58,985 nt of DNA, filler included, from Dugesia japonica (GCA_001938525.1; 5 parts of 5 records of this genome joined end to end with filler, not necessarily neighbours in it); one strand, 5' to 3'; shown: positions 1-54,865, counted from the first letter of the whole stretch. Program-made: numbers and translations. The notes: generated from the sequence alone by a model not told the origin.

Positions 1-327
1 CGAAATGCGGGTATCCTGACGGATTATTCCAACTTGACCAAGGAAGATGCGAATAACGAAAGAGAATGGGCGGCCGCAGAGCGTCAAGCTTTCTATCAAT
101 GGGTTGGTCCCGACCGCACCCATGAAGTTCTACACCGAACTACCATTTTTGATCCAATAACTAATCAGTCCATTGATCATTGGCAAGATGGGCCATCCCT
201 ATTGCCTGTGTCGCCCGCCCACCTTCTTCAAAGTACTAGATTCTCCCTGGATCTTGGTAATACTCTATGGGATCTGCGAAACCAAGCCAGCGGCGGCGCA
301 CTAGAAAACACAGACCCCAATCCTTGA
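1..327 (+). CDS. LTR-cassette ORF2, copy 1 (5'-truncated by window), unknown protein
   Basis: RNAGILTDYSNL...ERQAFYQWVGPDR matches RDTGVLVDRSNI...ERAAYYSWCGPRR (2865) and RDAGILSDKSNL...ERLNFHQCTGPER (30845). Confidence 0.7.
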   Translation, partial: RNAGILTDYSNLTKEDANNEREWAAAERQAFYQWVGPDRTHEVLHRTTIFDPITNQSIDHWQDGPSLLPVSPAHLLQSTRFSLDLGNTLWDLRNQASGGALENTDPNP

Positions 328-556
328 CCTTCTAAGCTACCAGTGTGTTATTATAATTTTTCTAACTAAAATATATGTTTGTTCGTTATTTTCCTTTGTA
401 GTGTGATCTTCAACTGTTAATTAAAGCTTTTCTTTTATAGAAGCAGACCAAATGTAGAGATTCATTAAACTGTTTTAAAAAGAAAAGATACATATATATT
501 TTGCTCTGGATGCATAAATTTCTAAATCTTGCTCGCATTTAATATGTAACCTTTAG

Positions 557-915
557 TGCACTCGTCATTAAATCGCATTTCGGCTTCTACGAAAAAGTCG
601 CGCGACGACAGTTAGGACAGCGAGATGACCTGGGACCTGTATCGTCTCGCCAAGCGTAAATGGGAGGTGGATACCGCCAATGATAATAGTAAAGTAAGCC
701 GCTACCGAAAAAAATGCGTGGCTTTCCGAAAGGAAGTCGAGGCCTCCCATGCACAAGAGAGGGTATGAAAGGGGCAAGTAGAGTCTTTGGTGGATATGAT
801 CCGGTCCTACCAAGTCCAAGAAAATAAACTGGTAGGTGACGTTCTGAAGCTGAAGGCATCCATGCCGCTCGAACCTCTAATGGTTGAGAAAAACACCCAG
901 ACCCCTAAGAATTAA
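557..915 (+). pseudogene. LTR-cassette ORF3, copy 1 (one private TAG, shared TGA at 766-768, KNTQT tail)
   Basis: Follows acceptor ctttag|TG. Translates (M)HSSLNR...WDLYRLAKRKWE...QERV*KGQVESL...MVEKNTQTPKN*. AATAAA at 938. Confidence 0.7.
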
Positions 916-1049
916 TTTCGAGGCCACCTCTTTTATTAATAAATTTTCTAGTTTAAACTGTTTCGTGAATTTCCTTTTTGTTATTTTCATTAGTTGTACA
1001 TTCTTTTACAGTGGGAAAATTTTCTAACATTAATGATAATTTGTTTTAG

Positions 1050-1432
1050 TGACTCGCATCCATTTCTCGAACAATCTTCGTCGATGCCACCGCATGATGC
1101 GCCGCCTACTGGTAAAGAGGCACCTGAAGCGAAAAACCTACCAGGCCTTTTTACGACATTTAGACCAACGAGATAAGTTAATTAAAAGATTGGACACTAT
1201 AGTAAAGAAGCAAAACGACCTTGTCATTCAGACAAAGGCATTAGAAGTAGAGAATAAGCAATTACTACAGCGAAAAATTGAATTTCTAAAACAATACATT
1301 GCGGACTTATCAAGGCAGATTGGCAACCCTAATACCATGCAGTGGGACGTCGATGATGATATCGCTGCATTCAATTTGGTAATAACGACCCCGGACCAGT
1401 GGCTCGATCCAGGAGTATTGGATCTACTTTAA
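1050..1432 (+). CDS. LTR-cassette ORF4, copy 1: basic region, coiled coil, acidic/Trp C-terminus
   Basis: Intact 127-aa frame after ttttag|TG. Strongly similar to 3935-4317 and 31881-32244. AATAAA at 1447. Confidence 0.75.
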
Positions 1433-2491
1433 ATATGTTTACTTTTAATAAAATATTTTTTATCAGACTTGCAATTTCTTTTATTTGGTGATAATACTAA
1501 GGGAAAAATAGTGAACCCGAAATAAAGGTTTATAGGTAGGTACCTTCCATTAAGAGCAAGGTCAACCGCCATAAACTGAAAACCTACCACAGGGACAGTA
1601 AGGTAAATTCTTGAAAGGGTTCCCCTGAGGGCTGTTTTTCCCCAGCCGCCTTTGCCGTGTCACTCAACTCAGGTGGGACCCCAACATTAATATCATTATT
1701 ATTAGTTGGGGTGTCAATGTGGTTCTTATTGGCCTTAGTATTGTTATTAAGCGTGTAATTAATATTGTTACCATCCTCGTTAAAATACCCGTTATTATGG
1801 TNTTCAGAATCATTCATTTACATTGCTNTTGTGTTTTACTACCGTTAACCCATTANTACGTGTTCATGAATCCGCAGACACAATTAATAAAATTACGTAT
1901 GAATTCCGATATTATAGCAAGAAATATCACCAGTAGTAACCACTCCTTTTGAGGCGCTTCAGGAGGACCAAATCATGAATTTAAATATTATATTCGTTAT
2001 TACGATTATTATTGCTATTGTCACCATTAAATCATTACCATCATTAAGGTTTGGTCAATATTATCAATGATTATTGTCAATAAATTATTCACATGGAGTA
2101 TCCACCTACTAATCATTATTTAATTATTATTCTTTCTACCAGCGCTAATTATATCATCATAACAAATACTGTCCCGGTTATCCTTAAAATTAAGGTTAAT
2201 GATATTGTTGTTATTCTCGTTAATATTATAAATATCCTGACGATTTATAGGATTATTAGAATTAAAGAATAGTGTGACCAGTTCTGAAACCTTTCTTTTA
2301 CAAAGAATAGGGATAATACCAAATAATGATATGTTCTAAATTAAGATGAATTTAATGGGTTAATATCTTGTTATTAGAACGAGGCCACTCATTAATAGTG
2401 CATGGCGGCAGTAAAACTCTTCTTGTGGGAGAGATTGAAATAAGTTTCATGATTGGATTAGTAATTCTATTGTTTTTTATTCCCTTAGATA

Positions 2492-2665
2492 ATGCCAGCA
2501 ATACTGCGAGACACCCTTCGTCAAATAAATAAAGCTGTTTGTTTAAAACAATTAATAGCCTACTATTTAACGAGGGTCCAGGTGGAAAACCCCGACGAAA
2601 CCGATCTCCAGTGTTTCGCCGAGATGTTCTCACTCCAGAACCAAGTTGATATATATGAGGAATAG
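2492..2665 (+). CDS. LTR-cassette ORF1, copy 2 (57 aa, below the ORF-track cutoff)
   Basis: MPAILRDTLRQINKAVCLKQLIAYYLTRVQVENPDETDLQCFAEMF... matches MPTELGTMLRLIRK...LRQLVAHLLTR...HPDETDLACFAEMF at 30507. Preceded by acceptor tcccttag. Confidence 0.7.
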   Translation: MPAILRDTLRQINKAVCLKQLIAYYLTRVQVENPDETDLQCFAEMFSLQNQVDIYEE

Positions 2666-2864
2666 CCAATTGCCCCAATTTTCGCTGGAATCACTCCCAT
2701 AGAATACAAATCATTGTCGTGTGGTCTCGTAGGAGATTTTAATTAAACCTATGACTGATTTTCTCTATAAATTATTTTCCACCAATATCAACATGCTTAT
2801 ATTAATTAATTAAACCTTATTCCTAAACCGAACGTTACCGGTTATTAATTGTAGAATCATCATC

Positions 2865-3293
2865 ATGGAATACAAATGGGAAGTGAGTTTAGACATTCGC
2901 TCCGGCCGCACTGTGTTCCAACGATACCAAAATCCCTATGAGCGTGACACCGGTGTATTAGTAGACCGTTCAAATATTCCTGTTGAACAACGCACAGCAG
3001 ATTGGCAATGGGATGCCACGGAGAGGGCAGCCTATTATAGTTGGTGTGGCCCGAGAAGAGACTGAGTCGCGTTTCCACCAACATCCCTTTCTTTTGAACG
3101 ATCTACCGAAGTGCCGCAGATAGAACAAGTATGGCATGATGGTCCATCTTTGGTCGGGCTCACCACGAACCGCTTGCCCTCTACGTCGCAACTGTCTTCG
3201 TTTGTACAAAATTATCTATGAAGTACGCGAAAGGATATGACTAGTAACAATAACGAAAATGCAGAAGAAGAAACCACTGATGTGCTAGTATAA
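2865..3293 (+). pseudogene. LTR-cassette ORF2, copy 2 (stop and frameshifts after 3065; 3' end approximate)
   Basis: ATG shortly after acceptor ttgtag (2853-54). A downstream WHDGPSL matches WQDGPSL of copy 1. Confidence 0.65.
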
Positions 3294-3442
3294 ATTAACT
3301 ATGTAAAAAACAAGTTTTAGATAAAAATTTGTTTTCTCTGTCTTGTTAGTGGTTTGAATAGTTGAAATCCTACCACTTTGTTTTGTTTCGAACTATACGC
3401 AGTCTTAATTAGAGTTCTTAAATTTTATTCTTTATTTTATAG

Positions 3443-3810
3443 TGCATTCGTCTCTAAATCGTCCATCTGCCCCTAATAAACAGATGAGAGAATCCAGTGA
3501 GGACACCGAAATGTCCTGGGATTTATATCGACTCGCGAAACGTCGATTCGAATCAGGAATAGCCAATGCCAACGCCAAAGTAAGGTGTTACAAGAATAAA
3601 TGTGTTAGTATTCGCAAGGAGATGGAAGCTACACACGATCAAGAAAGAACGTGAAAGGCACAGGTAGAGTCATTTGCCGAAATCATCCGGTCCAGCCATG
3701 ACCGCGAAAATAAACTGGTCAAAGAAATCCTACGCCTCAAAGAAAAATCGTACCTAGAAGCCCTTATGGTCGACAAGGGAACACAGACCAACTCCAACCG
3801 TTGTACCTGA
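3443..3810 (+). CDS. LTR-cassette ORF3, copy 2 (in-frame TGA 3652-3654, KGTQT tail)
   Basis: ttatag|TG start. ...QERT*KAQVESFAEIIRSSHDRENKLV...MVDKGTQTNSNRCT*. AATAAA at 3826. Confidence 0.7.
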
Positions 3811-3934
3811 AGCTGTTATTTTACAAATAAAATTTGTATAGTTTTTAGTCTCCGTCATGTTATGTGTTAACTCAATAACTCAATATCAATAACTTTCATT
3901 GTTTCTTCTTCAATATTGATGATTACTTATTTAG

Positions 3935-4317
3935 TGCCACGAATTGTTTTCCCCACAAGTTTGCGAAGGTGCAACCGGATAGTGCGCCGTTTATTATTGG
4001 AGCGCCACCTAAAGCGCAAAGCAGATAAGGCTCTCTTAAAACATCTTGGCCAGCGCGACAGACTTATTAAGAAGCTAGACATAATATTAAAAAAACAAAA
4101 CAAATTGGCGACACAAACTAAGATTCTAGAAGCCGAGAATAAGCAGCTGTTATTAAGGAAAATCGATTTTTTAAAGAAATATATAGCCGATCTTTCTCGG
4201 CAAATCGGCAACCCAACTTGGATTCAATGGAATGATGAGGATGATTACGCTGCGTTCAATTTTACAATGATCGACCCGAGCCAGTAGTTGGACCCTGGCG
4301 TGATGGATGATTTATAA
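3935..4317 (+). pseudogene. LTR-cassette ORF4, copy 2 (TGG>TAG at 4285)
   Basis: atttag|TG start. Homologous to 1050-1432; the frame continues LDPGVMDDL* after the TAG. AATAAA at 4328. Confidence 0.7.
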
Positions 4318-4699
4318 ATGTCATTTCAATAAATGTTGTGAGAATCATTGATTTAAATTTTGTTGTAAGCTATAGAAAATGGTAGAACCCGAATAAAAAG
4401 GCTTATGGGCGCGCACCTCCCATTAAGAGAGAGGTCAACCACCATAAAAGAATACCTAACCTAGGGGCGTTAGGTTAAATTCTTGGCTGGGTTCCCCTGA
4501 GGGCTGTTTTTCCCCCAGCCACAAACTTTTCTATCCAAATCAGGTGGGACCTCAACAAATATTTTAATTTTGTTTTAATGAATAAAATAAATAAAAAATT
4601 TTTAGGTGTAATTGATGGGTAAAAATACCAACATAATTATGTTGGGACAGAACCCAATCGATGATATAAACAAATTCAATAAAAATCAAATAAAAGAAT

Positions 4700-6423
4700 A
4701 TAAAAATTAAATTAAAAACGAGATTATAAACAAAATTTATTTGTCAAAAATCAACAATAAATTACAAGTAATCCCGAAAAATTCGGAAGGAAGTCAACTG
4801 ATATTCAAATTATTTGGATCCCAATCAGAAAATAACAAATAAATCTATAAAAAATGGTAAAATTAAAAAGTAAATCAAAATAAAATTACCATAAAATTGT
4901 ATTTTCTGGAAAATCGAATAGTTCTTGAAATAATTAATGGAATAAACTAGAACAAATAACCAATAAGGTTGAAAATTGGGTCCAAAATCGACTATAAAAG
5001 GGTCCTGAAAAACACAAAAATAACAATTAATCAAATTAGTTTTCAAAACAAAATTCAAAACTCACCGAATTAATCGTTCCAGCCAATCAGAGGTCTAATT
5101 AAAAGAAACAATTATCAGAGAAACCCATATTAGATTTTAAAATTAAAAATCTAAACATTTCCAAGAAATTCCAGTTCGTCATGAAAGCTTCCGTAGAAAA
5201 GTCAATTCGTCTCTGGAATAGCAGAATCCATTATCCAGACACGAATAGGTTATCCAGACAACAGTGAATTAGTAGCCCACTAGATAGTAGCGCACTAGAT
5301 CACTAAGAAATATTAGTCGCTTATAAACTACTTACAAATAGTAAATAGCTAAATTAAATTAAATAATGATTATGAAAAATTTGTATGACTCATCATTTTT
5401 GTAACAAATAAATGAGCCATGCTGATGAGTCATTGCCGGTCTAAACAAAGACCATGACTCATCATGAATTGAAAAAATTTTTAGTTGGATAATTTTTATC
5501 TAAATAGTCAACAATATCTTCTATAATGTTATCTATATTCATTGTATATATCTTTTGATTTAAATATTTGTTTATATTAGGTGCTTTGTTTTACGTGCAT
5601 TCATATTGCCATGTCTTTGTTTAATTTGCATATCCATTGTTTTTTCCTTACTTAACCTACATTTATATTGCATGCTTGTGTGTGTGTATAAACTTTTACT
5701 AAATAAAACTTTTAAAGTTAATAACCAAACAAAAGGTAATAAGTCAACAAATTTTGCTATTATCCAAATAAAATATACTATATATATAAAAATCAACTTA
5801 ATAAATAAAACTAAGCGAAATAACTAAAAAAAAAATTCTATTGTTAAACAACTTAAAAAAAAAACTGAATATAAATTAAAAATAAATTAAATTAAAAAAA
5901 CAATAATAAAAACAAAATTTATTTGTAAAAAATCAACAACAAATTACACGTAATCTCGAAATATTCAGAAGAAAGTCAAATGATATTCAAATTGTCTGGA
6001 TCCTAATTAGAAAATAACAAATAAATCTATAAAAAAGGGTAAAATTAAAAAGTAAATCAAAATAAAATTACCATAGATTTGTCGTATTTTCTGGAAAATC
6101 GAATAGTTCTTGAAATAATTAATGGNATAATCCAGAACAAATAACCAATGAGGTTGGAATAGGGACCAAAATCAACTATAAAAGGGTCCTGAAAAACACA
6201 AAAATTAATTATTAAAGATTAAAATTTAATTAAAACACCATTAATCAAATAAGTATTCAAAACTCACCTAATTAATCGTTCCAGACAATCAGAGGACTAA
6301 TTAAAAGTTTCAGAAAAGCCCATATTAGATTTTAAAATTAAAAATCTAAATATTTTCAAGAAATACAATTTCATCACGAAAGCTTCCGTGAAAAAGTCAA
6401 CGAATAGGTTATCTAGACAACAG
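4700..6423 (+). repeat. Direct duplication (~4700-5264 and ~5880-6423) of an LTR promoter-like segment with TATA box
   Basis: Near-identical ~550-bp blocks, each with CTATAAAAGGGTCCTG (TATA at 4993, 6177), similar to CCTATAAAAGGACCCCTG at 28961. Confidence 0.75.
5271..5470 (+). mobile_element. Maverick/Polinton terminal fragment
   Basis: AGTAG...TAGATAGTAGCGCACT plus TGAGTCAT/TGACTCAT repeats homologous to 13149-13380. Confidence 0.55.
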
Positions 6424-8789: not shown

Positions 8790-11700
8790 GAAGCATTTTT
8801 AATATTATCGTCGCCATTAGTAATTAGCATTATCATTTGATTATTTTTATCCTTATGTTTATTAACTATTGTTTTTGAATTATACTTATTAATAATATTA
8901 TTCTTCGATATTATCCCAATTACTGTTATTATGTTTTAGCATTCGTATTATTTTTAATAGTTTGCTGATAGTTACCATAGTTAATAGGATTATTATATTA
9001 ATTTAATACTAAAATAGTTGTCACCATTAAATACTTATCGTTAATTTTATTAAAACCACGCACAGAGAATAAGCAATCGAGTGATCAGATACACAGTCAA
9101 CCATCAACATCCGCTGCAGTTTCTCCTCCCCCGAAAAGTCCGGAAGATTTTTGTAGATTTATCTGATGACGATTAATTAACAAAACATTAAACTCATGGT
9201 ACAGGTTTATGTAAAATATTATAATCACGAACGATTGAGTTTTCCTTTGTTACGACTTTTATCATCGATAGCTGTAACGAACCCAAATTATACGCAGATG
9301 GTGAGCTCATTAACTCTTGATGTGGGGCAAGAGCCACCGGGGCTGCCATCAACATACTCTCAGGACGAGTATATTAAATCTCAGTTTGTGGGTTGTGAGG
9401 TATATAATTTTTTAGCCATATCACTGCAACTTATTTATTTCATATATTTGTAATTTATCTCGCACACGTGTACGCTAACTTGTTGACCAAATAAAAAATG
9501 CAAATTAACAATGAAAACAAAAATTATAATTCTTACAATTTCATTTTCAAATCGTTGATCCTTAACAAAAGACAGACTCTGAGAACTTTTAATAATTTTT
9601 TTCAAACAAATTGTTTTTACCACCTTTATTATCGAAACAGAATTTTTAATCAAGTATAAATATTTTCTGTCGGTAAGATTTTAACAATTTTAAATCATAT
9701 TATCATTATCATAAAATACCCTTTACTCAATGAAGATCTCCCTTACATACCTTTGCAAGATTTTCAATATTTTCAATGGCAATTTTCGAATCTACCTCTC
9801 TTTGTAAAGATTTTCCAAATAAGTCAACTGATAATTTCCGAGAGTTATCCAATTTTTTAACATCCAAGTCACACGCACAAAGACACGATTTCTTTTCGAA
9901 TCGAGCAAGCTAAAATTTTCATTTAGCTCTTAATTATTATTATTTTAGTGATTGCCTGGATCATAAAAAATCCATGCAAAAATTGTAAGTTTTAAATTGA
10001 TTTGTAATCGTTAATTAACTTGACAACGTCAAACCGTTATTGATTTGAGTGCAGAAGATGGGTATTTCATTTGCGATAATTTGCATTGTACATAGGATCA
10101 TGAAAATATTATGTTATGACTTTAATTTGCTTGTTATTCACTAATAATTATACGAACCCAACAAAGATTCAGATGGTGCGCTAATGCACTCTTAACGGAG
10201 GGTAAAAATCACCGAGGCTGCCACCAACGTATTCAAATGGCGGATANATCAAATCCTTATTGGTGGGACATGTAGTGATATTTAACGAACCATACCACCC
10301 ATGACTTCATTACTAATAATAATAATTCATTGGCAAGTTTTCTAAATTTAACTGATATTAATTAATTTCTGCATTTTACATCTTCAAGATTTTAGACCGC
10401 TTTATTAACTTATAATTAACTTCATGAATTACTTATTCGTTTAATTTTGAACTAATTTTTTTTTCGTTTCAATTATTCTACTTCTTAATATCTTTATAAC
10501 ATTTTATATAAATATTTATATGGTTTCCTGCTCCAAACTATCCCATATTTCATGCTTTCGCGTTTCAACCGAACAAGTATCTGCGTGTTGGTGAGTTTAT
10601 TTTTAGTGATTTTCGAGTCTTGTATATACTGTTTATTGTCATACACCCACTCAATAATCTCATTTATTTTCTTATTTTTTATTTTAAGAGTTTCATCAGG
10701 ATTGTTTTTGTCAAATTTTTCAAAAATTTATTTTTTTACTATTTTCTGTTATTATGCAGCTGTGCCTGCTATTCATCATTCAAGTCTTATTATTTTCGGT
10801 TTCTGTTAGTTTGTTTCTGATAATGTAGTATACACTGATTTGCAGAGATTTATTGAAATTTCATAATACTGACTGTCAAACGGTGCCAATCATTATTTTC
10901 AAATTGTGTTACCATTATGATTCCTTATTGCTAACAAAATTTTACCATATTTTTACAGATCATCATATGATTTCAAAATTTGAATGTCATCTGATTGAAA
11001 AATATGCTGCGTGTTCATAATTGCACCGATAAGTTTTTAAAAACCTTTAAAACAAATAAAAAATAAATATCAATAAAATAATAAACCGCATTTGCGGACA
11101 TTCGCAAATTTCTGTAAAAAGTAATTATACATCGTAATTATAAATAATAAAATAATACCAATCTTGAAAACATTAATAAATAGTTTATTTACATTATATT
11201 TTTATAATTAAACATTCATATTGTCTTTTATTATCGAATTACTAAAATAGTGACTCGAATTTTCTATTTTTTACTTTAACAACAATATTTTAACCTTTTA
11301 TTAAGTAATTAATACTATATTACAGTGTTTTTTTCACGATTATTATATCTTCAATTCTTCTAGTTGTATTTTATTTAATAATTACTTTTACTACATAGTT
11401 TCTAAAATTCTTATTTTCTATCATTTATCAATAACCATACATTTCTGTTATTATTATTCTACCATTTATTATAAAATTGTTTTTATTCACATTAATATTT
11501 ATAAATCAAAATATTTTACTTAAAAATAAATAGCGATATTTCAGTTAGACCCCTTTTTTATTTTAAATCTGTTTTATTAATTGTTTTAACTCCAGAATTT
11601 TATTTTGTCTTTAATGCCGGGTTCGCTTTTTTTGATATTTATTTTGTATATTTTTATTTATCAATTTTTCCTCCAGTTCAGTGATTCGTATAATGAATAT

Positions 11701-27075: not shown

Positions 27076-28960
27076 NNNNNNNNNNNNNNNNNNNNNNNNN
27101 NNNNNNNNNNNNNNNNNNNTTAATTAATTAANNNNNNNNNNNNNNNNNNNNNNNNNNNNNNNNNNNNNNNNNNNNATTTAAATGTGTTAAAATTACAAAA
27201 TTACTTAATTATTACTTATTTGAATTTCTAAGCTGCAAATCTACTTCATAAAATAATGAATCCCAAAATACACGAGTAAATAATCTTCCTTAGGGGGTAA
27301 TTCCTATGTTTAACTTCAATTTAAAATCAAAATACAAATTAAATAAAATAATTTCATAAACTGTTTCTTTCCTTTTTGAACAATTGTTTATACATGTATC
27401 TGTAAAACCCATTATAAGTTTTATGTTTTGGGCATATAGACTCATTCTCTTTCATTGCCTTTCATTCTCTTTCATACTTTTTATCAAACGACATAGAGAA
27501 AATTATCTCATTAGTCCAGATTCAGGGCAAGGAGATAATTGATTAATAATAAAAAAAATTATTGATTATTATATTTATTTAATAATGTATTTCAATGTTG
27601 TTTATACCTATTATTATAATAAAATATAATTAAATCTAATAATAAATTTATAAATCTAAATAAAATAAATACAAATCAAATTAATCTTATCATTCTAATT
27701 CATTTGAAGTTTACAATTTATATTATCCATGACAATAATAATGATAATAATCTATTAGATTAATAATAATTGTAATAATAATATTATACATAACAACAAA
27801 TCTAAATCTACATTGTTAAATATGATTTTAATAAATCTTAATTTACAATAAAAATCTGATAAATCCTAATAAATCTACTTATAAATAATAATAATAATGA
27901 TTAAATAATACCACTACTACATATAATAATCTAACTCATCATACAATATTTGTTTTCCAAGTTCATTCCAAAATTATTAAATCTGTACAACCATAACTCA
28001 CAGTCATCACACCCTTTCATACCCTTATCTCCTTGACCTGCTCAATTTTAGTTTTATTAATATTTGTAATCTAGCCCAACAATATTATTATTATTGATTC
28101 ATGTCTTTCATTATTAATATTTATAAAATAATAATAATATAATACTTTTTTCATATAGACACCTATATGCATACATGCAAATATAGTCGACCCAAATATA
28201 AGCGGGACCCGGTTCAAAGTTTCCTAGCGGGGCCTTGAAAAAAATTTCATATAAGAAATAATAATTTATTACAATTTGTTATTTATTGCGTTCATTTAAA
28301 GTGTTGGTGTGAAACACCCGTTAAAAAAGGAACTAAGGCCGGAAAGCCTGAATCAACAGAAAAGAGCGGCAGGACCACCATATTTACCAATAATAAAAGG
28401 TAAAGCGCGAAATAACCATTAGAAAAGAATAAAACAAAATCGGAAATAGATATGAAGAATTGGGTAACATAAAACCAACTTACATCAATATTGGGAATTA
28501 AGAAGAATTATTAAATTAATAATAAAAAACCAAGAAAAGCATTAGAGAAAATAATCAATTAACAGAAAAATATATTAATTAATTTTAAAATAAAAAGAAG
28601 CAAAATTAGTTAAAATTCTGTTTTACTCGAATAACTCCGCTCAAGGAGATCGGAAAGAATCCGGGTAAGAAAATACACCAAGAAAATAACAAGACGCATC
28701 AAAGTTGCTAGAAAGAAAAAACTTACCACCATCCAGAAGGTTGTTACAGGGTTTTCAAGATCGGGCCAATGAGAAACCTAAAAATAAAAATAAAACAAAG
28801 TCATTTTCAATTGTCATGTGTCACGCTAAAATTAACTACCAATTGCGGCACCAAAACTCGAAGAATATTTTAGAAAATTGGCACTGGAACCAATAAAAAG
28901 TCGAAAATTAAATCTAAAAATAACCAACAAATCTGAAAGAAGTTAGGGTGTGGAGAAAAT

Positions 28961-28978
28961 CCTATAAAAGGACCCCTG
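28961..28978 (+). promoter_or_regulatory. TATA box of the LTR-like element
   Basis: CCTATAAAAGGACCCCTG; homologous boxes at 4993, 6177 and 8126. Confidence 0.6.
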
Positions 28979-29327
28979 ATTTTAGCAAAAAAAAACAAAA
29001 AAACAAATCAAACAAAAAATTCTTTCCTGTTGTCATCAAAATTTTACATTGTCAACGTTAACTGCGAAGGAATTTGATTCAAGAATTTTATCATCAAAGG
29101 AACGCTCATTCTAACAATATTCATCGGAAAACCCAAATACGATCAGTTATCGCGCATCGATTATCTGAGACATCGTATAGAGTAATTTGATTGTTCAGGA
29201 TTACAAATTAATTAGAAATTGTTCTGAATAGTAGAACCTATCAATACTCTGGAGATTGCTAATAAATTTCAAGGGCTTTAAGAGGAAAAGAGAACCCGTT
29301 GCAGAAATTCTTATCAAAATATTTTAT

Positions 29328-29334
29328 AGTAAGT
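29328..29334 (+). promoter_or_regulatory. Candidate leader-exon splice donor A|GTAAGT
   Basis: Perfect GTAAGT about 365 bp downstream of the TATA box. The last exonic base A completes ATG with the AG|TG acceptors. Confidence 0.55.
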
Positions 29335-30506
29335 ATGGTTATGTGTTTGAAAATAAAATAAACTTTAAAATGCCTAATTTTGATATCTTGAATTATTATG
29401 ATAATAATAAAGAAAAATTATAAAAACTAAGACAAAAACATTTTTTTTACATTCAAATAAATTTATTTTAAACCGCATGATCCCGCTGATCCAACAATTG
29501 ACTCTTTGCTAGTTGCACTCCGATTCATGCATGCATCATTTTTCTCTTGTTCCAATCAAGCATACATTACTAAATAGGCACTATCGTATTCCCAGTAATA
29601 GTGATAGAAAATTTATAACATAATCACTCAAACCCATAACTCAGTCAGTAAAATGAAGGGTTAATACACACACCACTTTTTCAGTGTGTATTACTATAGC
29701 ATCTTAAATTGTTTACAGCTGCTAGGCAACCTGTTTCAGCGGAATTTTTCAAAGTCTGAAATTGGACTTATCGCGGAAATTTTATCAAATATACTATTTA
29801 CCTGAGTAAACAAGCAGAATTTCTTAAAGCTCCCACAGAAAATACTACTTTTGTAAATATTATTATTATCATGATTATTAATCCTATTATACTTATTATT
29901 ATCATGAAATTGCCCTTATAATTATTATCTGGTGTAACTTTCTTATTAGTGTGATTATCATTATCATCATTAAGATTGATAATCGTATTATTAGTATGGA
30001 TAATAGAACTATCCTTATAGTTGTAACTTGATGAGCACCATTATTATAATTATTACTATAATTCTTATTATGATTATAATTATTACCGTCCTCATTATTG
30101 GTATTAGTATTATTATGACTGTTGCCAATAGTATTATTGTTTTGATCTTTATAAATAATTCGACTATGATTCCTCAATGTCAAAACCGTATGGGACTTAA
30201 TATTACGAAGATTTATTATTGGATTTATTAACTTCATTATGGAAATAAGTATTGTTATCGTCTTAGTCCAGCGATGATGAGGATAATGTCTTGAATATTA
30301 TTATTCCTATAAACATTATTATACCATTAGAACAGGGGTGCCACTTGGCGACGCCATTCTCCTTATGAGTAAAATCTCACTAATAACGTATTGTATGCTG
30401 GAACTTACAACACTAATAACAGTAACATACACATCATGTAACCAGGGTTAAACCAAGGGAGTCCTGAATTTCAATGTAACCTTTGGTCATTGGTCATATT
30501 TAAATT

Positions 30507-30701
30507 ATGCCCACAGAACTGGGAACTATGCTCAGATTAATTCGGAAACAAAGCAAGACCGTCAGATTGAGGCAGTTAGTGGCCCACCTATTGACAAGGG
30601 GTGCAATAGAACACCCAGACGAGACGGATCTAGCTTGTTTCGCGGAGATGTTCCCCTCAGTGACTCCAGTAGATATTGATACCGAGAATATGCCCTTGTA
30701 A
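30507..30701 (+). CDS. LTR-cassette ORF1, copy 3 (64 aa)
   Basis: Homologous to 2492-2665 (PDETDLxCFAEMF). The acceptor appears mutated AG>AA. Confidence 0.7.
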   Translation: MPTELGTMLRLIRKQSKTVRLRQLVAHLLTRGAIEHPDETDLACFAEMFPSVTPVDIDTENMPL

Positions 30702-30844
30702 ACAAGAATGCAATCCGTCAATCGCTGTTACTTATTTAAAATGAGCTAACGAGTAGAATAATTATATTTGTTGCTTATGTTGTTTCCTTAATTAATTTAT
30801 TTATATATTATAATTTGAATAAAATTTCGGTCTATTTATTTAGA

Positions 30845-31184
30845 ATGGAATCGATATGGGAGCGTATAATAGATCGACGGACTCGTCGTGTGATTTTCCG
30901 ACGTCATCACAATCCCCATAATCGGGATGCTGGAATTCTGTCTGATAAGTCAAATTTACCTCCCGTCGAAGCCGCGGTAGCTCGAATCCAGAGCTTCGGG
31001 GAGCGATTGAACTTTCACCAGTGCACTGGGCCGGAGCGTTAACTCGCTACCCCGTTCCTTTATCAACATCCGGCGCGCCCACTATTAGTACAGGCGTTTA
31101 TTAACAACATGCTCTGGGGAACTAGAGAGCCCTCAGGTCAGAAGATGTCGAAAACACCGCTCCTTCTGAAAACCCAACCCCTGA
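30845..31184 (+). pseudogene. LTR-cassette ORF2, copy 3 (internal stop at 31040 and deletion)
   Basis: tttag|AATG start. Homologous to 2865+ and 1-327; ends ENPTP*. Confidence 0.65.
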
Positions 31185-31404
31185 CTCTTAATGTGCATTT
31201 GTTGTTATAGAAATTGATTAATAGATACGTGTTTTAATTTAGTCTTAATCTACTTTCTCCAGTTGTAATCTTATAGATAAAGGTTTCTTTAATATTACTA
31301 TACAGACAGTTTGTTCATTTTCATCCCTTAAGCAGAGTCACATGGGTGTCAGTAACTTGGATGCTAATACTTTGAGAAAAAATTTAATATTATTCTTTGT
31401 TTAG

Positions 31405-31865
31405 TGCCTTCCTCGTTAAACCGTCCTACAGCTCCTACTAAGAAAATCCGGGATACTAGTGAGGATCTCGAGCTCACCTGGGACTTATACCGACTTGCAA
31501 AACGTCGATGGGAGGCCGAGATAGCCACTGCCAATAGTAAGGTGACCAGATATAAGAAAAAATGTATCGCCCTCAGAAAAGAAGCCGAGGCCTCCCACCT
31601 TCAGGAACGAACCTGAAAAAACCAGGTGGAATCCTTTGCTGAAGTTATCCGGTCCGGCCATGACCGTGAAAATAAACTGGTCAATGATATCTTACATCTC
31701 CGAACACGAATGCCTCTCGAGCCGTTGATGATCGAGAAGGGTACTCAAACTCCTGGAACTAAATTGCATAAGTGTTTCATTGTAATAAATTTGTTAGCCA
31801 AATTTTTTCTACGAGTTTATGTTAATGATTCATTCAAATTCTTGTGTCAAGTTACCTTATGCTAA
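31405..31865 (+). CDS. LTR-cassette ORF3, copy 3 (in-frame TGA 31614-31616, KGTQT tail; natural stop probably lost near 31760)
   Basis: gtttag|TG start. ...QERT*KNQVESFAEVIRSGHDRENKLV...MIEKGTQTP. Confidence 0.7.
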
Positions 31866-31880
31866 TCTAATTATTTTTAG

Positions 31881-32244
31881 TGCCTCGTATCAATTTTCCT
31901 AACAGTCTTCGCCGATGTCATCGTATCATGCGCCATTTAAAACGTCGAGCAGACCAGGCCCTCCTTAGACATTTTTCTCAGCCTGACCGCTTGATAAAGA
32001 AACTAGATCTGATAGTTAAAAAACAGAATGAGTTAGCGAACCAAACCAAGGCCTTGGAGGCCGAAACCAAAAACTACTGTTGAGAAAGATAGATTTCCTA
32101 AAACAGTACATCGCCGACCTTTCCCAACAGATTGGTCAGTCAACTTGAGCCCAATGGGACGACAGTGACGATGTCGCGGCCTTCCATTTTCTAATGCATG
32201 ACCCAGACCAGTGGCTGGACTCAGGTGTGCTAGACGGCTTATAA
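31881..32244 (+). pseudogene. LTR-cassette ORF4, copy 3 (short deletion, frameshift near 32070, TGG>TGA)
   Basis: ttttag|TG start. Ends QWDDSDDVAAF...QWLDSGVLDGL*, like copies 1 and 2. Confidence 0.7.
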
Positions 32245-33414
32245 ATGTCAATTCAATAAATGTTGTGCGTATCATTGTCTTAAATTTTTGTGTAAGTTAA
32301 GGGAAAATAATGAACCCGAATAAAAAGGTGTATGGGCGTGCACCTCATATTAGGAGAGAGGTCAACCACCATACACTGAATACCTGACCTAGGGACGTCA
32401 GGGTAAATTCTTGAAAGGGTTCCCCTGAGGGCTGTTTTTCCCCAGCCACCTTTTTCTTACCATCCAACTCAGGTGCGATCTCATCAAAAGTAATGAAAAT
32501 AAAATTAACATTTCAAACAAAAAACGTTATGAGTTATGACACATTTATATTTATTTATGATTGTTTACACAGTAATACTTTTTATCAATTCTAAATAAAC
32601 GGATTTATCATTTTTCACATGTTTTATTACAAATTTTTTAATAATACCACCATAACTTCAATTTTAGGCTAATTAAGACTCAATAGATAAAATGGCTAAA
32701 GATCTAAAACGTTTTTGATTAATAGTAAATCTCAAATAATTTTTTATTATTTTCAATTTTGAGAATGATATTTTACAGGTAAAGTTAATATTATGTTTAA
32801 CGACGCGGTTCTGCATATAAGCATTCATGCATTGTATTATTATACATAAAAAATTAAAATAACAATTAGCTTTGTTTAGAATTATATTATGTGGTGGGAA
32901 AATATTTTATTAAGATAAAATAAATTAATTTATTCTAAAACAATAACAGTTTATTTATACAATTTTATTATTTTTAATACATAATAATTTTAATTTCATT
33001 ATTAAATGAAAGAATTTTTACAAATAATTTTCGGTAATTTTTTATTTATTTAAAATCCGTATTGTATTAAATTTCAGTTTTAATGACACTTTTTAACTAG
33101 TTTTTAATTTCAATTGTATTAAATTAAATTTTAAAAAGTTCATTAAATTTAATTTTATAATATATAAATATTAATTTAATCTAAACTACTAAAGTAAATT
33201 AATTTTATTATATAGATTTTATGTCTGATTTTCCACTTTAAAAGTATTTTTTAAAATTTTTTTTGCACTCTAATATATTTATTTAATTTATGATATTAAC
33301 GTTTTATAAATTAAGGAGCATTTAATTTCAGAAACAAGTTTGAATTTGAAACAAGTTTAATTTTACTTTTTTAAAATCAAGGAAAACATTAATTATAAAT
33401 ATTTCAAACATAAT

Positions 33415-50273: not shown

Positions 50274-53200
50274 TGTAAAGATTAAAAATTGAAAATCGCA
50301 ATTTAAATTTTGAAAAAAATGTTATAAAAGATTTCAAGAATTTTTTTAAATATTTAAAAGGTTTGTTTAAATATTCAGCTTTTAAAAAAATAGTTTTTTG
50401 ATTTTTTTAAAATTTTGTGTTATAAATAAAAATTTAATGGACTTTTATGAAAGTTTATCAGTAACTAACATGGCGACCAACGCTTCAATGTACCAAATTC
50501 GAGAAGTAATAAACCCAGGAATTTATTGGCATGTTGACGATATTGAGCAGTTTATCAATGGTTGTAAATATTTCCAATATATTGGTGTAAAGAAAAAGGA
50601 TAAAAACCTCTTGTTGGTTGGCTTAATTGATAGAGAATCAAGAGAAGTATACGAATGCCAAGATGAATTATTAGATTTTAAGGACCGACTGCGTTCCACA
50701 AAAAGACTCTTATACAAGACTTAGAGAAAGCTATAAAATACAAGAGAACGGATGAACACGTTTATGTGTACAAGAAAAGAATTTTAACACTGGTCGATAA
50801 AATCTTTGCACACAAACTAGACAAAGAAGAGATGACAAATGAATTAATATTCAATAGTTGTCGTGATAAGAGAATGCAAATAAAGATTAAAGGAGGCAAA
50901 GTAGCTAACTAAGAAGAGATATTTGAAACAATAAAAGCAAATGATGAACTAAAGGAGGATCTGAAAGACACAGATAATATAAATAAGAGGGAGAGTTACA
51001 GCAATGCAGTAAAAAGAGGCATGACCAAACAACGCTTCTCAAGAGTTAACGGAACTCAAATGGAAGATAAAAAAGAAATTACATGTTGGTCATGTCAGAA
51101 GATGGCTCATATCAGCAGAAATTGTCCGGAAAAGAAAAGAATGTGTTACGCATGCGGATCAGAGAATCATATAAGAAGGAATTGTGACAAAATTATATGT
51201 TCAAGATGTGGAAAAAGTGGACATCATACAGAACAATGTTATACTAATTTGGAGAAAAGAGGTGTATGGACTAAGGATAAAAGACAGCACAATAACGAAC
51301 AAAGAAACGAAGCAACACAATACAACCGAAGAGAAGAAACAAACAGACGATAATAACAGATTCCCAAAACCGAGTTGGAAGACATCAGTTAATAATGGAT
51401 TCAGGAATAGAGACGGCAGTAGATATACAAACTTAATGATAGAAGAGAATGAAGAGTGTATAAAGAGAGGAGATAATATTTATTATTATGACGAGGAGAC
51501 AAACAGCTATAAAAAAGAGACCCCAAACAGACAAACGCCATAAAAAGTCGAGATGATTGGAGCAATGAATTGAAAAACAATCTAGATCGCAATATACATA
51601 TGTATAGTAAAAGTGGTTTATTAATAGTATAAAAGATGATACTAAAGAGAAAACAGTCGACAGAAAAGTTTATGAGTATTTTAAAGAAAGATTTTAAAGA
51701 TGAGAATGAACAAGTAAAAATAAAATTATGATATAATGCAAGGTAGGCCCAGTATGGAAAATAGAATTCAAGGGAGATATATGGACTACCTTTTGGATAC
51801 AGGTTCAAAGATAAACGTGGTGAGCCTCAATATTTTTAGAAGTCTGGCAAATGTGGAGCTGATGGGAATTGATGACGTGTTAAAATGTGCAAATAATAGC
51901 AGAATGAACTTTTCGGGTAAGACATTTGTAGAATTAGAGATCGCAAACAATGAGAAAACAGTACAATTCACCGTAGTCAAAGAAATGAGTCCGAATCATA
52001 TCAAAGGAATAGACATGCAACGCCAGTTTGGATAGCGTTTAACGAAAGAAACAAAGGGTTATGGGGATGAACAGTGGATCTGCAACATAGATACAAAGTT
52101 TGGCCGTAAAATCGAGGATTCTGAAAGAGAACAGAGAGCTTTAAAAATTTTAATGACAAAACAAGACGAGAAACTGGAAAGGTAATAGTAAAACATTGGG
52201 AAGTATTCATGGTAAATAACTAGGATGTCGAATGCACAACGTTGGTTGAACAGACGATAGTGACAAAGGGTAACCAAATAAATACACCATTGAGACAACC
52301 CATGAATCTAGAAGAAAAAATAGATGCAGCCATAAAAAAATTTAGTGGACGCTAACATTATAAGAAAATGTAATTTACAGTGAAACACGCCACTGATATG
52401 CGTCTGGAAGAAAGAAAGAAAGGATGTGAAACTTTGCTTGGACTTTAGAAAACTAAATACAGTTACGGAACGACAGACCATCCCGATGCCAAACGTAGAA
52501 GAAATGTTAGACACTTTGTATGGAGCCAAATATTTCAGTACCATAGACTTGGGAAACGCATATTACCAGGTACTGTTAGAAAAAGAGTCAGAAGAGAAAA
52601 TAGGCTTTTCGACAAAAAATAGTCAATATTGCTTCACAAGAATGCCATTCGGCATAGTAACAGCCCCAGGAACATTCCACGTAGTAATGACAAAAGTATG
52701 GACGGGCTAGTTGAAGCAATGGTGTATATGGATGACATAATGGTATTCTCAGAAAGACTAAAAGAACACTATATAACACTGGGCCAGGTACTAGAGCGGA
52801 TCCAAACGGCAGGGTTGTGAGTGAATCCAGAAAAATGTCACCAAAATTTTACGCAAAGTAGTGAAATTTCTTGGCCACATAATAGATAAAGAACGAATTC
52901 GAACAGATCCAATTAAAGTCGAAGCCATTAAAAATTCTGAGAAACCCAAATGCGTAAAAAACCTGAAAAGCATGCTTGGAATATGCAATTATTACGAAAG
53001 AATCATCAAAAATTATTCAAAGAAATCAAGAACCCTAGAAGAATTATGCGGAAGTTACAGCATGAAACTAATATGGTCAGATGGATGTGAGAAAGATTTC
53101 GTATAAATGAAACAAGCACTGATAAAATCACCTATTTTAATATTTCCTGATATAAAGAAGACATTTATTTTAGATACTGACGCCAGCTTCGACGCAATAG

Positions 53201-54865
53201 GAGCAGTCCTATCACAAAATGATGATGATGGAAGAGAAAGAGTTATTGCTTACTGCTCACATGCAATGACATCACATGAGAAGGGTTACTGTATCACACA
53301 GAAGGAATTACTAGCAATATATTACGTCGACAAACACTTTAAATATTATTTATATGGAAAAAATTCATTACGAGAACATATCACATAGTCATCGTATTCA
53401 TGAAAAAGACGAACAAACCGATAACACCTCAATTCCAAACATCGATGAATTACCTTAACAGCTTTGGCATGGAACTAATATATAAACAATGCAAAAAACA
53501 CACAAACGCAGATATGCTCTCAAGAATGAAATGCAAAACGTGCACTCAATGTCAAATGCAGCATGAATATCCAAAAATGGGAAAGATAAAAACAAGACAG
53601 ATAAATCAGATGATAACGATAGAGAGATGTAAATGGCAAAAAGAAATAGAGGAAATCAAGCTAATCAGACGAGATATTCAAGAAGGAAAGAATTAAAAGT
53701 ATAGAGTCGAAAGTAACATAGTGAAAACATGTAATTTAAAATTTGGATTTCAATAGAGAAAAGAATATCAATAATCCAAGAGATACATAAATTGTTAATA
53801 CATACCGGGACAGAAAAAATTATCAGCTATATAATCAGTAACTGCGACATGGAAGAACTGAAGAAGACAATCACAGAAGTGATAAGACAGTATGAAGCGT
53901 GCCAAAAGAACAAATATAATACTGTAGCAACAAAAGAGACAACAGTAAAATTAAGCGCAAATTGTCCATTTGAAATGATATATATGGACACGAGTGGGCC
54001 TTTTCAAGAGACTGTGCACAGACGAAGATATAAATGTGGAATAATAGACCAATAAAATCGATACGTAAACCTAACGGCAATCAGCAAGCAAAATAATGAG
54101 ACAATTAAAAATGTGATAATGGAAAAATGGATAATGATATTTGGAGCACCAAGAGAAGTTCACGTAGACAGCGGTAAGACATTTGAATCGAAAAACCTCA
54201 AGAATCTGATGTAATCGATGAATATAGAAATACACTTTTCAAGTCCGTACCATCACAATACAAACGGAATTATAGAGAGAGAAATTCCGCACAATTAGAG
54301 ACTGTATTAACGCAGCCGAAGATAAAGATAGAAGAAAGGATTGTAGTAACAGCATACCGGCGATTGAATACATGATGAATGAGAGAAGGCAAAAGACATT
54401 GGGGCAATCACCAGCAGAATTATTATTCAGTAAGAGAATTCACAGAGAACAATGGTTTGACAGCCGAAAAGACAAAGAATTAATGGAAGAAACACCTACA
54501 AAAAGACATTTTCAAGTGAGAGACAAAGTATTGATTGAACTAAAAAATAGAACAAAAAACAATGAAAGATACGCTGGTCCATACAATATCACGGATAAGG
54601 TACATGAGAGAAGATATCGTATNCGAAATACAACGGNAAAAGAGCTAGAAAAGAACGTAGAAAAGCTTAAAAATTTCTTTTAATCGACAGGGATGTAAGG
54701 ATTAAAAATTGGAAATCACAATTTTAATTTTGAAGAAAATGTTATAAAAGATTTCAAGAATTTTTTAAAATATTAAAAATGTTTGTTTAAATACTCGGCT
54801 TATAAAAACATAGTTTTTTGGAAGATTTAAAGATTTGAAAGTATGTGTTATAAATAAAAGTTTTT
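50274..54865 (+). mobile_element. Near full-length compact Gypsy retrotransposon (LTRs 50274-50470 and 54694-~54865), pseudogenized
   Basis: Direct repeats starting TGTAA; PBS TGGCGACC at 50471; PPT before 54694; three CCHC knuckles, LLDTGS, LCLDFRKLN, YMDD, RNase H DTDAS, integrase, YAGPY. Confidence 0.93.

Follow-up and report, generated by a model that had tools for sequence, protein, structure and literature searches.

We analyzed a 58,985-nucleotide stretch of Dugesia japonica DNA (GCA_001938525.1; the window, meaning the whole joined stretch, whose coordinates are used throughout) and found that the unit at 28302..32486, here copy C3, is a real, abundant, integrated mobile element that carries genes and has decayed in this copy. 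Its four open reading frames (ORFs) are kept by purifying selection and, judging from homolog searches, are four protein families without known relatives. The unit is probably a solo long terminal repeat (LTR) that remained when the two LTRs of a giant Gypsy-type element recombined. We assign a probability of about 0.6 to the whole mechanism, leaving protein function aside, in which such a solo LTR would work as an alternatively spliced four-gene unit. Two further window copies, C1 and C2, were available for comparison, and 7 of the 24 listed sequencing runs were compared with the stretch. The copies and the target sites of C3 are as follows:

28302..32486, + strand: whole element, copy C3, TG...CA, 4185 bp; likely solo LTR
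28298..28301, no strand: left target-site duplication AAAG, from sequence
32487..32490, no strand: right target-site duplication AAAG, from sequence
1..1686, + strand: copy C1, cut by the window start, with part of ORF2 (1-327), ORF3 (557-915, two stops), ORF4 (1050-1432) and the 3' end
1687..4557, + strand: copy C2, 5' part missing, with ORF1 (2492-2665), ORF2 (from 2865), ORF3 (3443-3810), ORF4 (3935-4317) and the 3' end

A sequence-only reading of this DNA had described TG...CA ends with short inverted termini and an exact 4-bp target-site duplication (TSD). Both the ends and the AAAG duplication were confirmed, the latter with a chance probability of 0.005-0.012 as computed from flank composition; the TSD is known from one full-length copy only, C3. 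Inverted termini are present but short, with 4 of the 5 first bases matching in C3 and 9 bp as the longest match between any two window ends. The ends of C3 follow the pattern TGTNR at an AAAG target in an AT-rich flank, and all six window ends (three left and three right) adjoin AT-rich flank. No terminal direct repeats or long inverted repeats were found within C3. In the DNA run X1, two single contigs lack the element and run from the left flank to the right across 20-24 diverged letters; these look like empty paralogous sites and favour insertion. The family is abundant, since 8613 X1 contigs align to the stretch; depth, which is not equated here with copy number, peaks on the ORF3 block and the 3' block. 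The claim that the unit is mobile thus held on the TSD, the TG...CA ends, the empty-site-like contigs and the abundance of the family.

The coding part of C3 comprises four ORFs and one block of unusual conservation:

30507..30701, + strand: ORF1, 64 aa, acidic, own ATG, uninterrupted, with the motif E-x-P-D-E-T-D-L-x-C
30844..31200, + strand: ORF2, acceptor at 30844 and ATG at 30845; stop after 65 codons, remainder deleted or frameshifted
31405..31765, + strand: ORF3, about 120 codons, basic heptad-repeat protein, begins with TG behind TTTAG; premature stop at codon 71
31881..32244, + strand: ORF4, about 127 codons, basic N-terminus, heptad middle and acidic tail, begins with TG behind TTTAG
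31647..31682, + strand: nucleotide-conserved block inside ORF3, 80% three-way identity vs 51% for the ORF

The four ORFs had been given as about 60, 140, 120 and 127 aa. Four ORFs in the same order were indeed found, but these sizes are those of the family: ORF1 is the single uninterrupted ORF in C3, whereas ORF2, ORF3 and ORF4 are broken, ORF3 being open for 70 codons before its stop and ORF4 carrying an 18-nt deletion, a frameshift and a stop. Two diverged copies had been said to keep the ORF order and protein motifs. Both do, although C1 retains only a partial ORF2 with ORF3 and ORF4, and C2, which has ORF1 to ORF4, lacks the 5' end and promoter of a full copy. Over the 3' 1.1 kb, C1 and C2 are 65% and 68% identical to C3. 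Because single contigs of other copies also link the ORFs, some spanning ORF1 and ORF3 and others the 3' block with ORF3 or ORF4, the order is a trait of the family.

Purifying selection, which had been suspected from third-position differences, was substantiated in every comparison. The pN/pS ratio was 0.35 for ORF1 (C3 vs C2) and, among the window copies, 0.47-0.66 for ORF2, 0.25-0.35 for ORF3 and 0.18-0.25 for ORF4. It was below 1 in 19/19 pairwise comparisons, with bootstrap upper bounds of 0.28-0.83 and all intervals below 1, and third codon positions were the most variable in each of the 19; these comparisons overlap and all come from the three window copies. The true ratios are lower than those measured, because synonymous sites are near saturation. 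Three-way nucleotide identity of C1, C2 and C3 in ORF3 and ORF4 is 51%. The conserved block at 31647-31682 stands out at synonymous sites too, with invariant runs of 9 and 14 bases, which suggests an overlapping DNA or RNA signal.

The stop at ORF3 codon 71 is present in all three window copies (766-768, 3652-3654 and 31614-31616), whose ORF3 proteins are 58-66% identical, and selection persists in frame behind it (pN/pS 0.29-0.52). In other copies this codon is sense: in X1 across 29 contigs and all of the depth, in 19/19 raw reads of X16, in all of the depth of X14 and X8, and in 59.1 of 64.2 depth of X12. On the evidence of these five runs, in which other copies read a sense codon, stop-codon readthrough or recoding was rejected, and the shared stop is a lesion. 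That three neighbours have it in common is odd; recurrent transitions would be the simplest reading, favoured because similar stops occur in ORF2 and ORF4.

By composition, ORF1 and ORF2 are acidic, and ORF3 and ORF4 are basic with heptad repeats. No transmembrane or hydrophobic segment was found, the top 19-residue hydropathy being at most 0.95 in 9/9 ORF copies, and sORF2/FAST-like fusogens were rejected on the absence of such a segment. The sequence-only reading recognised none of the proteins, and homolog searches of ORF1-4 likewise gave no match to any known family. An ORF3 profile had 0 matches at E<=0.001 among 1.84 billion proteins, and a word-index protein search limited to near lengths found no homolog of ORF3 or ORF4. 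Pfam returned only coiled-coil matches below cut-off, PDB sequences gave nothing under E 0.67 for ORF1 and ORF2, and the best value in the ESM Atlas was 0.77 for ORF4, with none for ORF1. Metagenome and viral contigs held 0 matches to the 3' motif or the ORFs.

The signals that would govern expression of these genes were located as follows:

28963..28969, + strand: TATA-like box (TATAAAA), from sequence; putative
28990..29328, + strand: candidate leader exon without ATG, ending in A; inferred exon, with no ATG in 28963-29328
29329..29334, + strand: candidate splice donor GTAAGT, seen in one copy only; no other GTRAGW occurs in 28990-30500, the background frequency being about 0.2 per kb
29371..29810, + strand: possible further micro-ORF remnants of about 17-35 codons each; one copy only
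29839..30320, no strand: degenerate ATT-rich spacer, from sequence
32255..32260, + strand: AATAAA after ORF4; others at 30818 (after ORF1), 31784 and 32319, by sequence only

The TATA box (28963), the ATT-rich spacer (about 29840-30320) and the poly(A) signals after ORF3 and ORF4 had all been noted before and were found again, with AATAAA following ORF3 and ORF4 in all three copies and following ORF1 in C3 (30818). As motifs, a candidate promoter and candidate poly(A) signals lie in one orientation. The micro-ORFs have no counterpart in the other window copies, and two of them gave no Pfam match. Behind the TATA box lie 366 ATG-free bases that end with an A at GTAAGT, the sole donor-like site before ORF1. 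The conserved start of ORF3 and ORF4 contains no ATG, a feature that the sequence-only reading had overlooked together with the acceptors in front of it: in 6/6 cases the frame opens with TG right behind a T-rich tract and TTTAG, in spacers that are only 30% identical across copies and against a TAGTG background of 0.31 per kb. ORF2 has an acceptor-like site and then its own ATG in 2/2 copies. Of 11 acceptor-like sites in C3, only those of ORF3 and ORF4 are followed, across a one-base junction, by a frame longer than 60 codons.

The layout is that of one promoter with alternative last exons. In the proposed mechanism, the 5' promoter would yield one ATG-free leader exon, which would be spliced to a choice of four downstream exons to give a separate short mRNA for each gene. 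The last A of the leader and the first TG of the exon would together form the start codon of ORF3 and ORF4, in the selected frame. From these motifs, we consider it likely that the two start codons are built by splicing, in which case both proteins would be made only from spliced RNA. A TATA-like word also overlaps the ORF4 stop just before AATAAA (32238-32260) in two of the three copies, possibly as a second promoter from which a short R region would result.

Relatives of the element are transcribed; transcription of C3 was not seen in the compared runs. Three raw RNA runs were compared at 85% likeness (6-25% of each run read), and most placed reads fell on A-rich or ATT-rich stretches. At 80%, the oligo-dT run X16 placed 163 reads on ORF1, ORF3 and the 3' block. 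No run that contains the stretch is on record as RNA, and no transcript start or end sites were mapped in the compared runs. The call for a transcription check was thus answered in part, by poly(A) RNA reads of relatives in X16 but with none from C3 and no splice joint among those listed.

Downstream of ORF4, the element ends in a conserved non-coding block:

32312..32474, + strand: conserved non-coding 3' block, predicted six-helix RNA with an unpaired AATAAA and an invariant 27-nt core at 32417-32443

The last 187 bases show 67% three-way identity vs 51% for ORF3 and ORF4. In the six-helix model 92.7% of cells are paired, against 29-51% in slid controls, and 4/37 pairs are changed on both sides, a level of compensatory change reached by 4/500 shuffles. 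AATAAA (32319 in C3) lies inside the block in 3/3 copies and is unpaired in the model. A search of Rfam with 28200-32600 gave 0 matches at E<=5, and no known self-cleaving ribozyme motif of the retrozyme or Penelope pLTR type was found there. The X16 coverage of the block fits a U5 or R segment reading on into an internal region, and also fits read-through from elsewhere.

We favour a solo LTR because the unit, by its motifs, runs one way from a putative promoter to poly(A) signals and has TG...CA ends with a 4-bp duplication, and because Gypsy elements of more than 30 kb exist in planarians. Its anatomy is asymmetric, with inverted termini of 9 bp and no transposase. Several observations weigh against this reading or parts of it. 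Neither gag-pol nor a primer-binding site (PBS) or polypurine tract (PPT) was found beside the copies at the three right and three left window ends, and no internal domain, PBS or PPT appeared among the best 24 of 899 and best 24 of 528 loose ends listed; of the first proposal, mobility, coding selection, a flatworm host and transcription of relatives were supported, and its central point, the LTR of a giant retroelement, is only probable. An LTR with several poly(A) signals behind its promoter needs a means of read-through, and none was observed. The candidate donor was seen in one copy only, and its joint to an acceptor is absent among the best 15 of 45 joints listed. Among the X16 reads, 0/163 are at least 99% like C3; they run in both directions and leave zero depth on ORF2 or ORF4. 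Runs X19 and X15 have almost nothing on the ORFs at 85%, and one contig of a possibly-RNA run covers ORF1 to ORF3 unspliced. The 3' model comes from three sequences, with helix 1 picked from one copy's fold, and the single-sequence fold of the 3' end is not more stable than shuffles (z -0.85), so that the structured 3' end noted earlier has comparative support from compensatory pairs but not from folding energy.

The alternative named by the sequence-only reading was a Ginger-like DNA element. Under this explanation the unit would be a DNA transposon, complete but non-autonomous, that depends for its movement on a Gypsy-integrase-like transposase of the Ginger type supplied from another locus; the genes would be cargo that benefits the element. 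The TGTNR ends and 4-bp TSD fit Ginger2, with its AT-rich target preference, and all six window ends adjoin AT-rich flank rather than an internal domain. The alternative fails on the length of the terminal inverted repeats (TIRs), which are 40-270 bp in Ginger1 and 50-180 bp in Ginger2 but at most 9 bp here. Ginger1 was rejected because its CCGG/CCGT target also differs from AAAG, and Ginger2/Tdd on TIR length, although its ends, TSD and target agree. The ends of the unit are moreover very unequal: a long conserved block with paired changes is confined to the 3' end and is suggestive of an RNA stage; we regard this explanation as quite unlikely. A second alternative is a self-contained retro-element that moves alone through RNA, copied by the enzymes of another LTR element, its 3' block serving as a packaging or priming signal and no internal region existing. 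The structured 3' block in oligo-dT reads of relatives and the high abundance of the family are in line with this, as are copies that lie nested or side by side, both at 1686/1687 and in one contig. Ordinary LTR-type reverse transcription, however, requires terminal direct repeats, a PBS and a PPT, none of which is inside the unit, and TG...CA ends with a TSD are more simply those of a solo LTR; such a retro-element is very unlikely. A non-autonomous LTR element of the TRIM/LARD type was rejected because the unit lacks two terminal direct repeats.

A further explanation keeps the solo LTR and reduces the number of genes below four: ORF3 and ORF4 would either belong, as internal or final exons, to a single longer protein made by splicing, or be GTG-started frames. 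The ORF3 and ORF4 frames do read GTG at the acceptor, using the last intron base; no junction read was seen among the joints listed, and the donor comes from one copy. On the other side, each ORF ends in a stop followed by an AT-rich spacer, and for ORF1, ORF3 and ORF4 also by AATAAA; the ORF ends have no conserved donor; and the T-rich tracts and TAG are conserved at 6/6 starts, where a GTG start would not need them. Fewer than four genes is accordingly an improbable solution. Returning to the solo LTR with four separately spliced genes, a role for two of the proteins can be proposed by analogy. ORF3 and ORF4 would encode basic, soluble coiled-coil proteins with a regulatory role like that of Rev, Rex or CERV, acting on the structured 3' RNA to decide whether a transcript ends inside the LTR or reads on into the internal region. 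We guess at such a switch because several poly(A) signals inside the LTR would have to be bypassed to make full-length RNA. This is the weakest step and a doubtful one: no homolog or structure backs it, and only the basic, heptad-repeat composition fits Rev, Rex or CERV. The most general picture is tentative and, as a whole, rather unlikely: the LTRs of giant flatworm retroelements would be early-gene operons, with a promoter, a non-coding leader, alternative last exons and splice-assembled starts, encoding Rev-like regulators of an RNA switch at the LTR end.

Other features of the window were recorded alongside. The C1 end at 1686/1687 abuts the ATT-rich spacer of C2, into which C1 was probably inserted; one X1 contig likewise has a 3' end running into an ATT-rich spacer, and the spacer may be a frequent insertion site for the family itself. 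The region 4640-6400 has, 83 bp past C2, a similarly shaped left end in which TGTTGG precedes a short hairpin, and a TATA-like box near 4993; 4667-5205 recurs at 5845-6400 (83%), with no ORF1-4 match behind it and no right end found. In the AT-rich region after this left end, a 104-bp GC-richer repeat (9277-9380 and 10152-10255, 71%) is possibly a duplicated micro-ORF. Another left end, at 18533-18720, is near-identical to the first 19 bases of C3 and is followed by assembly gaps. The first coding part of a DHX35-like DEAH helicase occupies 25934-26590; 10 of its 11 protein matches are to named parasitic flatworms at 54-65% identity, and the remaining match is at 89%, which points to a flatworm host and makes a planarian one likely. 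No later DHX35 exons were found in the window, so we do not place the element inside a DHX35 intron. At 50274-54863 lies a decayed element with repeats of about 165 bp at both ends (85% identical), which we take to be an ordinary Gypsy-like element with gag/pol-like fragments; similar fragments occur at 20388-24004 and 43070-45005. ORF fragments at 14705-16194 and 46333-46575 look like pieces of a Polinton-type polymerase and of a Helitron helicase.

Genes that overlap LTRs have precedents, with HIV nef and MMTV sag as coding sequences inside LTRs and the HTLV-1 Rex response element as a structured LTR RNA tied to polyadenylation. Each of nef and sag is one gene in U3, in contrast to an alternatively spliced array behind the LTR promoter. 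Among planarian elements, the giant Gypsy elements Burro / GYPSM1 of Schmidtea exceed 30 kb with LTRs and share with the present family a flatworm host group, thousands of copies and accessory ORFs; by description, which is the only basis of this comparison, their accessory domains lie in or upstream of the polyprotein, and genes inside the LTR are unmentioned in the available text (PMC6431247). The planarian repeats GLT and GLT2 are annotated from Repbase, and GLT2 is transcribed upon SMEDWI-2 loss (PMC8532177). By eye, the opposite strand of the GLT2 probe (Table S1 of that paper) reads as an AT-rich spacer with TTTAG at its end, followed by TG and an open frame. No protein likeness was seen by eye, and one primer of each repeat is unmatched in the window at 3 mismatches; GLT and GLT2 may be sister families already catalogued as repeats. 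Because the GLT2 probe has this acceptor-TG layout, similar units have probably been catalogued as repeats with their anatomy undescribed, the available text of PMC8532177 containing no description of gene layout.

Partial parallels are known from other Gypsy-type elements. In the springer subclade of Drosophila, env obtains part of its start codon from the leader by experimentally mapped splicing to an AU dinucleotide (bioRxiv 10.1101/2023.08.03.551782); that case concerns AU|G in one gene of the internal region, and ours a predicted A|UG in two genes of a presumed LTR. CERV of C. elegans Cer1, an element that is sister to a flatworm errantivirus (PMC13524379), is a lineage-specific Gypsy accessory protein without outside homologs, made from a spliced mRNA (PMC10309623). 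It is one larger protein between pol and a 492-bp LTR, with a tested RNA-export function, as opposed to four small predicted ORFs. The sORF1 and sORF2 of the Drosophila MDG1 group are likewise small accessory ORFs that purifying selection maintains, and an internal poly(A) site terminates their short transcript (PMC11952523), but they lie between the LTR and gag, are unspliced, and in sORF2 include a membrane segment that the ORFs described here lack. The errantivirus survey limited LTR spacing to 14 kb and gave no LTR in either of the two Schmidtea rows, of six, that are covered here (PMC13524379). The available texts of PMC11410931, PMC13238120, PMC10954484 and PMC6884822 hold nothing on LTR content. 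Titles and abstract openings of the literature on Burro, GLT and LTR-borne accessory genes mention no genes inside planarian LTRs; Grohme 2018 and Repbase, outside this coverage, may bear on novelty.

If the proposed mechanism is true, an abundant class of solo LTRs would be a dispersed multi-gene family of four protein families in animals that serve as models of stem cells and piRNA silencing. Solo LTRs are usually regarded as non-coding leftovers, promoters at most. In the more general picture of LTR operons, with the entire unit inside the LTR, solo LTRs in their thousands would still be able to express these proteins in the host after loss of the rest of the element. The gene content would account for the great length of these LTRs. 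Regulation in the style of complex retroviruses would have arisen in the Gypsy lineage, and the family would offer a clean natural example in which alternative splicing builds start codons. Even without the LTR link, this would still be an unusual gene-carrying mobile element.

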